A DNA stretch of 13,532 nucleotides from a virus (IMGVR_UViG_2778261085_000011:1-13532), one strand, 5' to 3'. Positions 3,763 through 4,460 are shown, numbered from the stretch's first letter. Program-made: numbers and translations. The notes: generated by a model from the letters alone, not told the origin.

Positions 3763-4050
3763 TTATCGCCGTAACCGCTCCGGCTTCTTCCACCGGTACG
3801 TAATTTTTTCTTTCTCCTGGTACATCTGCACGCGGCGACGGTATGACAACATCTCCAGAACTCTGGTGTGTATGTTGCGTATATCCACGCCATTAAGCTC
3901 GATACCGTCACGGCGCATCACCTCAGCCATCACACGCGCGTAATTTTCAGCGGTGACTGTATCCGGCTGCGTGGCATGTTCGTCAGCCTGCTGGCTGATT
4001 CCGGTAATACTGCGGATTATCCCGAGCGCTTCGGTCTCGGTCATGGTCAT
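3763..4050 (-). CDS. Hypothetical protein, paralog of 2519-2809 (cos-adjacent)
   Basis: MTMTETEALGIIRSITG...ENYARVMAEVMRRDGIELNGVDIRNIHTRVLEMLSYRRRVQMY...WKKPERLRR. Candidate ATGs at 4059, 4050 and 4044; GGAGG spacing favours 4044. Confidence 0.6.
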   Translation of the reverse strand: MTMTETEALGIIRSITGISQQADEHATQPDTVTAENYARVMAEVMRRDGIELNGVDIRNIHTRVLEMLSYRRRVQMYQEKEKITYRWKKPERLRR

Positions 4051-4409
4051 GGCCTCCATAGTGATGGCGGGTCCTCCTGGTGGGGTGCCCTGCCACGGGG
4101 CGGGAGCATCGCGGAAAAAGGCTAGTTTTTGAAATTTTATTCGTCATCACCACTACTGCAACAAATTGATATTCAATGTGTTTTATTTTTATGGTGTCGA
4201 TTTTGCTTGTTTTTTGTTCATCACTAACTATCTACCAGCATCGTTTCCCAGCTCGAATATCATTTTTCTCTTTAAAAACATAATGTTAAAAACTGGTCAG
4301 ATGTCCCACAAAAAGTAAAATGGGACAGGTGAAAATCAATTTTTATTTTACTTTTCAGCATGTTAATTGATGTGGTGGTGTCCCATGAAAATTCAAAAAC
4401 GAGCCTTTT

Positions 4410-4460
4410 TCCGCGCGTCCGCCGCCCCGCGGTAAGGCCACCCCACCGGGAGGACCCGCA
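4410..4460 (-). other. Second, diverged cos-like site (cosQ-like plus cosN-like), copy B
   Basis: Minus strand reads GCGGGTCCTCCCGG (plus 4446-4459), 18 nt, GGGCGGCGGACG (plus 4416-4427; 9/12 identical to lambda cosN), then CGCGGAAAAAGGCTCGTTTTTGAATTTTCATGG; downstream AACATTATGTTTTTAAAG echoes copy A. Confidence 0.5.

Follow-up and report, generated by a model that had tools for sequence, protein, structure and literature searches.

The packaging end of the phage satellite analyzed here raises the question of why a single island should carry several cohesive-end (cos) sites close together, and by which terminases these sites could be used. The sequence concerned is IMGVR_UViG_2778261085_000011:1-13532, hereafter the window, by which we mean the whole stretch of 13,532 nt that was analyzed; it is a phage-inducible chromosomal island (PICI) of the EcCICFT073 family and a satellite of Escherichia coli. 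A preliminary description of this DNA reported two cos-like sites about 1 kb apart, copies A and B, each followed by one copy of a duplicated small gene, and proposed that a packaging module had been duplicated in tandem and that the products of the small genes might redirect packaging. In our analysis the packaging end of the island (2519-4460) does contain two modules in tandem, but they appear to be heterologous and partly eroded, with cos sites that would be read by the terminases of helper phages, an interpretation that we favor with a little more than even confidence.

The cos regions of phages lambda, 21 and N15 have the order cosQ-cosN-cosB, with I1 and R sites (Murialdo & Feiss 2022, PMC9026076). 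As a test for a lambda-type cosN we took an ACG/GCG flank followed by 12 nt and then CGCRG, with cosQ about 28-29 nt upstream, and all three sites that we identified in the window have this structure. The corresponding pattern, GGGGCGGNNGNNNCGCRG, has three matches in the 13.5-kb window and none in 200 shuffled sequences. Cos copy A occupies 3249..3467 on the minus strand, with cosQ at 3454-3467, cosN at 3421-3438, the core GGGCGGCAGACG and an I2/R3-like region, and it reaches the start of terS, the gene for the small terminase subunit TerS. Cos copy B lies at 4248..4459, also on the minus strand, with cosQ at 4445-4458, cosN at 4411-4428, the 12-nt core GGGCGGCGGACG and a cosB-like part at 4248-4410. 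The cosQ-like sequences of A and B begin with CGGGTCCT and lie 28 nt and 29 nt, respectively, from cosN; motifs resembling the I1 site for integration host factor (IHF) are found at 3348-3363 in A and at 4273-4288 in B. With a match to the pattern and a cosQ, copy B is the genuine cos-like site it had been taken for, and its spacing agrees with that of A within 1 nt, as had been stated. The preliminary description overlooked a third site, cos copy C, which is inverted (4065..4228, plus strand); its cosQ, recognized by direct reading, begins at 4069, its cosN lies at 4097-4114 with the core GGGCGGGAGCAT, and its cosB-like part extends to 4228. We considered a 1-nt deletion in the cosN of C, and rejected it when a recount gave a 12-nt core, as in its phage relatives. 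A and B have the orientation of the island genes. B and C form an inverted repeat of 88 nt with 80.7% identity (4067-4153 versus 4459-4372), and their cosB parts abut head-to-head at about 4229-4247, while the cosQ of C lies 25 nt from the probable start (4044) of the small gene that follows.

The predicted cos regions A, B and C are three distinct regions and not copies of one another. A sensitive self-BLAST of the window gave no alignment of A with B, its only results being a 299-bp gene and the B/C inverted repeat. What A and B share is a 24-nt cosN block (88%), a 16-nt IHF-like motif and a weak 34-mer, all in different registers, and the identity of their cosB parts (57%) is at background level. 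A comparison of 3300-3560 with 4230-4500, chosen beforehand as the check on a duplication, thus gave no homology beyond the core; a MAFFT alignment of the two stretches has a column identity of 69%, which is misleading because it places the cosN cores out of register, and local repeats and BLAST were used instead. The tandem duplication had to be given up, since only the 299-bp gene is shared (79.6% identity), the flanks of the cos sites are unrelated, and the two gene copies have diverged to a synonymous distance (dS) of 0.57.

Each of the three sites has its counterpart in the complete cos region of a phage, in a match that begins at cosQ and ends shortly before the terS gene, and each includes a part homologous to a real phage cosB in that position. 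For A, the cosB part is 81% identical to that of PhiR5_1 and 78% to that of CFT073 phage 4; together with the terS remnant that follows it, A is 72-74% identical over about 500 nt to phages 21 and PhiR5_1, and the cos of the TerS-encoding islands C5, MB06102 and PapRG matches A at 96-99%. Over 211 nt, B shares 83-85% of its bases with the cos of a prophage of E. coli Ch1 (84-85% in the cosB part), in a match that stops 16 nt before a terS of the DUF1441 family, with terL, the gene for the large terminase subunit TerL, also present. The counterparts of C are found in phi458, mEp460 and Ayreon, with 90-92% identity along 164 nt (79-81% to phi458 in the cosB part); in phi458 the matching region is flanked by the lysis genes on one side and a DUF1441-family terS on the other. 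These phage contexts are canonical, with lysis genes, cos, terS and terL in that order, and the TerS families were confirmed with Pfam. Based on these matches, A resembles the cos of phages with a Nu1-type TerS, and B and C would represent two lineages with a DUF1441-type TerS. The cosN core of B, GGGCGGCGGACG, is also present in a 44.9-kb phage contig (L043) with a DUF1441 terS and terL. The IMG/VR contigs with the cosN core of A, in turn, were all of PICI size and had a TerS of their own, and it is uncertain whether A is simply the cos of a helper, its cosN variant being confined in that database to TerS-encoding islands.

The presumed cohesive-end cores of A and B are alike in 11 of 12 bases (GGGCGGCAGACG versus GGGCGGCGGACG), despite flanks from different phage lineages. 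The closest phage cos to B and C, those of Ch1 and phi458, have the core GGGCGGGAGCGT. Gene conversion that keeps the ends cut at A and B compatible may explain the likeness of the two cores. A also agrees with what we take to be the lambda cos sequence in cosQ, the flanks of cosN, the I2 region and an I1-like IHF site; the lambda cohesive-end core is presumably GGGCGGCGACCT, as compared with GGGCGGCAGACG in A.

Behind A lies what is left of a Nu1-type terS (2970..3248, minus strand), which corresponds to codons 1-93 of 194 and covers the winged helix-turn-helix (HTH) domain and part of the long helix. Its frame runs on through 30 unrelated codons to 2877, and its start codon is ATT, not ATG, directly after a TAG. 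The remnant matches Pfam Phage_Nu1 (PF07471; E = 6e-43) at profile positions 1-95 of 164 and PDB entry 6hn7_B (lambda TerS 1-98; E = 8e-36), with a further match to 1j9i. The TerS of MB06102, a protein of 194 aa whose gene starts with ATG, has 94% identity to it in residues 1-93, and the homology ends at codon 93. Thus, the open reading frame (ORF) at 2877-3248 contains the N-terminal winged-HTH domain of Nu1, and lacks both a start codon and the C-terminal half responsible for oligomerization and TerL binding. Between B and C there is nothing in the terS slot, because the cosB parts of the two sites meet head-to-head. No Rpp, DUF1441 TerS or capsid gene was found by tblastn anywhere in the window. 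Both terS slots of the window are dead.

It has been reported that some PICIs encode a TerS (PMC6092414). Among these, C5, MB06102 and RM11911, which occupy the yejO locus, share with the window the integration site, both PerC-family genes and the small terminal gene, and stretch A plus the terS remnant is 92-96% identical to their cos-terS. Unlike the window, which has terS residues 1-93 without ATG and a second module (B, C and a small gene) upstream, they keep a full TerS of 180-194 aa and a single copy of the small gene.

The duplicated small gene, which we refer to as p93, is present as paralog 1 (3763..4044, minus strand; 93 aa according to gene callers, with a GGAGG 8 nt before the ATG at 4044 and further in-frame starts at 4050 and 4059) and paralog 2 (2519..2803, minus strand; 94 aa, alternative start at 2809). 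Their proteins are 72% identical, and their DNA 79.6% over 299 nt. The ratio of non-synonymous to synonymous change (dN/dS) is 0.30, which together with the dS of 0.57 indicates that both paralogs have been maintained by purifying selection and that their split is old. Paralog 1 is 96% identical to protein P0001, and paralog 2 has 87% DNA identity to the single copy of MB06102. The segment between paralog 1 and A (3468..3762, minus strand) is a junction: its part 3592-3762 is the natural 3' flank of the p93 gene, as in RM11911 and L009, fused to the cosQ side of A. BLAST matched 3592-4228 to L005 and L009 at 91-92%, and found the junction segment inverted beside an A-type cos in MB06102 and L041.

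Based on these data, the two modules can be described as follows. Module 1, of the DUF1441-TerS type, would consist of B and C fused head-to-head at the place of terS, followed by paralog 1. Module 2, of the Nu1 (lambda/21) type, would consist of A and its cut-down cognate terS without ATG, followed by paralog 2, its inverted partner cos having apparently been deleted. The statement that each cos is followed by one paralog is therefore partly right: the paralogs are real, but the terS remnant comes first after A, and the inverted cos C comes first after B. Likewise, the two PerC-family genes said to flank each module are both real, but they bracket the two modules together, and MB06102, with its single paralog, also has both.

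The same plan, i.e., direct cos, terS or rpp, inverted cos and p93, recurs in nearly all relatives examined. In 12 of 12 islands (L009-L020) a direct cos precedes the gene for either TerS (180 aa) or Rpp (144 aa), and 25-35 nt separate the cosQ of an inverted cos from the start of p93 downstream; in a wider set, the cos pair, with p93 after terS or rpp and the inverted cos, is present in 16 of 19 islands. In all relatives examined p93 is the last island gene, at no fewer than four chromosomal sites, and an identical p93 protein (P0059) is found behind either terS or rppA. Empty convergent pairs such as B/C occur also in ECCNB12-2, with 95% identity to the window in this region, and in L017. 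A 12.6-kb contig, L041 (IMGVR_UViG_2802429220_000023), carries at 8047-10300 two intact convergent terS genes, each behind its own cos: a DUF1441-type terS (8229-8777, plus strand) behind a B-type cos, and a Nu1-type terS (9465-10067, minus strand) behind an A-type cos. Its Nu1-type cosA-terS segment is flipped with respect to MB06102 and L030, which would be the product expected from recombination between inverted cos copies. The mosaic breakpoints between the window and its relatives lie at the edges of cos sites.

The family includes EcCICFT073 itself, for which we relied on Fillol-Salom et al. 2018 ISME J (PMC6092414) and 2019 Mol Cell (PMC6739421). Its packaging end (L008) has the order cos1 in direct orientation, rppA (144 aa), inverted cos2, a 93-aa gene of the p93 family, and phoQ. 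We located cos2 at 16095-16373, between rppA and p93 and inverted relative to cos1, and found that along 179 nt it has 93% identity to the whole cos of the PhiR12 phages, in which this region lies between Rz and Nu1. The words "inverted" and "orientation" are absent from the main text of PMC6092414, and the inversion of cos2 and its near-identity to the PhiR12 cos may be undescribed there. The two cos sites of EcCICFT073 lie about 0.7 kb apart and both are functional (PMC6092414), which speaks against the objection that two cleavable cos sites about 1 kb apart would be awkward for packaging. It has been shown that cos1 is required for transfer, that deletion of cos2 raises transfer by lambda and phi80, and that cos2 supports plasmid transduction (PMC6092414; PMC6739421).

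Several lines of evidence indicate that p93 is not likely to be a packaging-redirection factor, as had been suggested from its supposed position in the place of the small terminase gene. Firstly, each paralog is separated from its cos by the terS slot. Rpp genes start about 100 bp downstream of the island cosN, in the terS position; the paralogs, which start about 370 nt from the cosN of B and about 620 nt from the cosN of A, do not have this position. Secondly, comparison by hhalign with RppA, Nu1 TerS and DUF1441 TerS gave probabilities of 0.1-1.5% (0.1% for RppA), and neither Pfam nor a PDB sequence search, which covered the chains of the RppC-TerS entry 6HN7, gave a match. A 13-residue HTH-like resemblance to TerS (ELNGVDIRNIHTR), with an hhalign probability of 1.5%, was taken as chance. 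Rpp proteins are winged-HTH proteins of 135-153 aa (PMC9026076), and the p93 forms have 93-98 aa. Thirdly, c1503 (rppA) of EcCICFT073 alone blocked lambda when expressed (PMC6739421), and a c1504-c1507::cat derivative was still transferred by lambda and phi80, at about 1e6-1e7 transduction-forming units (TFU)/ml (PMC10460865). This interval, which lies between rppA and phoQ, very probably includes the p93 orthologue, judging from gene order.

p93 corresponds to phrog_1561 (PHROG E = 7e-50), and its PHROG matches were confined to families of unknown function. The family had 847 matches, all close, and among 1.84 billion proteins it had only 36 cluster representatives; tblastn gave none in 50,697 phage records, and of two scans of GTDB species representatives one gave nothing and the other only a Shigella locus. 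The family is a very narrow one, of satellites in E. coli and Shigella. The AF2 model of p93 has three helices and is of low confidence (predicted local distance difference test score, pLDDT, 64.5), and Foldseek found no match for it in the PDB at E <= 0.001; the basic C-terminal helix may hint at nucleic-acid binding. Taken together, p93 is probably an accessory, conserved end-of-island gene, and neither part of the core packaging machinery nor a substitute for a terminase subunit.

Since the island has no TerS or Rpp left, we infer that helper terminases must recognize its cos sites directly, as signals that work in cis. The TerS of the helper would bind the phage-like cosB, and its TerL would nick cosN. 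Possession of several types of cos would widen the set of usable helpers, with phages of the DUF1441-TerS type acting via B/C and those of the Nu1-TerS type via A. Extra sites would be tolerated for two reasons: lambda-type termination is known to require both a cosQ-cosN in the correct orientation and a nearly full head (discussed also in PMC6092414), and PICIs that are packaged as multimers already skip cos sites. As the preliminary description allowed, not every cos site need be productive. The shared cosQ/cosN cores would be the sites at which recombination and inversion produced the mosaic, which would not be the result of a duplication in place.

Several observations weigh against helper terminases using these sites. 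Lambda and phage 21 differ in specificity by only a few bases, so that at 81-85% identity the cosB parts may be too dissimilar for a helper TerS to bind. Because A-type cosN (GGGCGGCAGACG) is found only beside an island-encoded TerS, A may need the TerS that the island has lost. Cos function in this island is a prediction from sequence, and the near-identical copies in several assemblies could reflect clonal descent and not mobility. Finally, deletion of cos2 of EcCICFT073 raised transfer by lambda and phi80, so an extra cos can come at a cost (PMC6092414).

The first alternative is that the island is packaging-defective and its cos sites are decaying scars, inherited vertically after the loss of both terS genes. 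The truncated terS without ATG, the empty slot between B and C, the deletion of the inverted partner of A, the restriction of A-type cosN to islands with their own TerS, and the fact that the full layout occurs in none of the 5,426 complete E. coli genomes searched would all be expected of such relics. Decay is harder to reconcile with three cosQ/cosN cores that still fit the consensus, with the 81-92% identity that B and C keep to phage cos over 160-210 nt, and with intact int, alpA, replication genes and both p93 copies; moreover, empty convergent cos pairs recur (L004, L017), suggesting that they are maintained. We consider this explanation possible but doubtful.

A second alternative is that the convergent cos sites serve mainly as inverted homologous repeats by which terS and rpp cassettes are flipped, or swapped among islands and phages, packaging being secondary. 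The inversion isomers of the cosA-terS segment (MB06102 and L030 versus L041), the identical P0059 behind terS or rppA, and the mosaic breakpoints at cos edges are what such a device would produce. On the other hand, the repeats are full-length phage cos regions including cosB, longer than recombination requires, the cos2 of EcCICFT073 supports plasmid transduction, and the B/C pair of the window encloses nothing that could be flipped. As the main role of these sites, exchange seems to us unlikely; as an additional role, cassette inversion or exchange is a possibility that does not exclude the other readings. Finally, the proposal of a tandemly duplicated PerC-cos-small-gene module, with the paralogs as Rpp- or Ppi-like redirection factors in the terS position, would account for two cos-like sites of equal cosQ-cosN spacing with a paralog after each, but it is highly improbable given that A and B share no homology beyond the core, that in relatives the paralogs lie downstream of terS or rpp, that p93 is unlike Rpp and TerS, that c1503 alone interfered with lambda while c1504-c1507::cat still transfers, and that the PerC genes do not repeat with the unit.

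Going beyond two eroded modules with helper-read cos sites in the window, we tentatively propose, as a single joint claim, that cos-PICIs of E. coli carry modular arrays of helper-specific packaging cassettes. In such arrays, a direct, island-specific cos, used via the TerS or Rpp of the island, would be paired with an inverted, near-exact copy of the complete cos of another phage lineage; cassettes of the Nu1 and DUF1441 types would be stackable, providing alternative helpers and two packaging directions; and the inverted cos would drive inversion and exchange of cassettes, with the strictly cos2-linked p93 as an undescribed component.

The remainder of the window supports its assignment. Gram-negative PICIs are recognized by int, alpA, a primase/helicase replication module with iterons, and cos, by having no lysis or tail genes, and by a size of about 13-15 kb at a fixed chromosomal site; the window has int, alpA, the replication module, iteron-like repeats, cos and a fixed site. 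Its long genes are all on the minus strand and include an integrase (12291-13532), an AlpA-like regulator (11570-11776), a RepA/AAA_25 helicase (6807-8213), a single-stranded DNA-binding protein (SSB; 5410-5835), a ProQ/FinO protein (4849-5373) and, at the distal end of the island, a SocA_Panacea gene (1-513) that may be toxin-antitoxin or defense cargo; in the source contigs a 145-aa gene follows it, outside the window. The int, alpA and replication genes and both p93 copies are intact, and neither a capsid gene nor TerL had a match in the window. PerC-family gene 1 (4565..4852, minus strand; Pfam PerC, E = 8e-33), which has the same place in relatives, is the final gene of the replication/regulation operon, upstream of B. 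PerC-family gene 2 (1660..2031, minus strand; Pfam PerC, E = 8e-23) is 41% identical to it, lies distal to paralog 2, and is present also in relatives with a single p93 gene, such as MB06102. Directly 5' of the cosQ of B lies a terminator-like hairpin (4461..4487, minus strand), AAGCCGGA-ACAC-UCCGGCUU followed by seven uridines, with an RNA folding energy of -18.1 kcal/mol (z = -3.96); it was missed by a terminator scan, the same hairpin precedes cos1 of EcCICFT073, and it probably ends the PerC operon. On the minus strand the order is thus PerC 1, hairpin, B (direct), C (inverted), paralog 1, the junction segment of about 300 nt, A (direct), the terS remnant, paralog 2, an ORF on the opposite strand, and PerC 2. 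A promoter scan of 2400-4700 predicted 6 promoters versus 3.0 +/- 1.6 in shuffled sequences, which is not clearly higher.

In the closest complete genomes, related islands sit between tRNA-Pro/yejM and yejO, which is also the site of the island in the window. NNXD01000001.1 (GCA_002486915.1) matches the window at 100% identity, and three further assemblies match it at 99.8-99.9%; in all, the element was seen at 99.8-100% identity in at least four assemblies inspected and 24 contigs read. Since it is near-identical in several assemblies, the layout is real and recurrent, and not an assembly artifact. The whole arrangement at 2400-4900 is absent from the 5,426 complete E. coli genomes, in which the best coverage was 71%.

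Other features of the window were also observed. A perfect (CCAG)n tetranucleotide array of 13 units lies at 1495-1548, between PerC 2 and the SocA_Panacea gene; island copies otherwise 99.8-99.9% identical have 11, 15 and 19 units, and the array looks like a hypermutable simple repeat. Tandem iteron-like repeats of 13 nt, beginning with CTCCCCACTTT, are found at 6615-6639 and 6781-6807, just downstream of the RepA-helicase gene, and are probably the replication origin of the island. Two stretches of the minus strand score above the Rfam gathering threshold, one (9391-9478) for C4 antisense RNA and the other (9500-9576) for the Hfq-binding RNA isrK, both within an Ash/Icd-like regulatory region. 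A 2.4-kb stop-free frame of 805 codons (9148-11565, minus strand) runs across these RNA genes and an Ash-like gene, and gene callers disagree on it (178 aa versus 549 aa). In the same part of the island, a sequence is partly repeated in direct orientation at a distance of about 800 nt (9714-9761 versus 10500-10547, 96%; 9930-10043 versus 10731-10844, 72%).

Multi-cos PICIs, TerS-encoding PICIs and cos mimicry are already described. Quiles-Puchalt and co-workers reportedly found in 2014 that SaPIbov5, a satellite without a TerS of its own, carries the cos of its helper and is packaged by the helper terminase. The window concerns another host clade and other terminase families, and it differs from SaPIbov5 in combining several cos specificities, one of them inverted, in one island. 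For SaPIbov4, two putative cos sites have been noted (cited in PMC6092414). With lambda, the window has in common that a Nu1 homologue follows A; unlike in lambda, B and C have the cos of phages with a DUF1441 TerS and a different right flank. EcCICFT073 is similar in its int, alpA, replication genes, SSB, PerC and packaging end, in having more than one lambda-like cosQ/cosN within about 1 kb, and in an inverted cos directly upstream of the orthologous 93-aa terminal gene. In contrast to EcCICFT073, the window has three cos sites and not two, no rpp, a terS truncated in one slot and absent from the other, the terminal gene twice, and phage-like cosB parts of two TerS families (Nu1 and DUF1441). 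Of the two functional cos sites of EcCICFT073, one is dispensable.

New in this locus are the three cos sites of two terminase families, the empty convergent pair, the decapitated terS and the doubled terminal gene. The generalization that the inverted cos2 is a near-exact copy of the cos of another phage, always fused to p93, and that cassettes of two terminase families are stackable may also be new, and it reaches beyond the window. The practical message is modest: the window is a mosaic, partly eroded form of a known architecture. If each cos is indeed read by a different helper terminase family, this would explain the puzzling presence in EcCICFT073 of a second cos that lambda and phi80 do not need, and cos content alone would predict which prophages mobilize which islands. 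The range of usable helpers decides the spread of the virulence and defense genes that PICIs carry.

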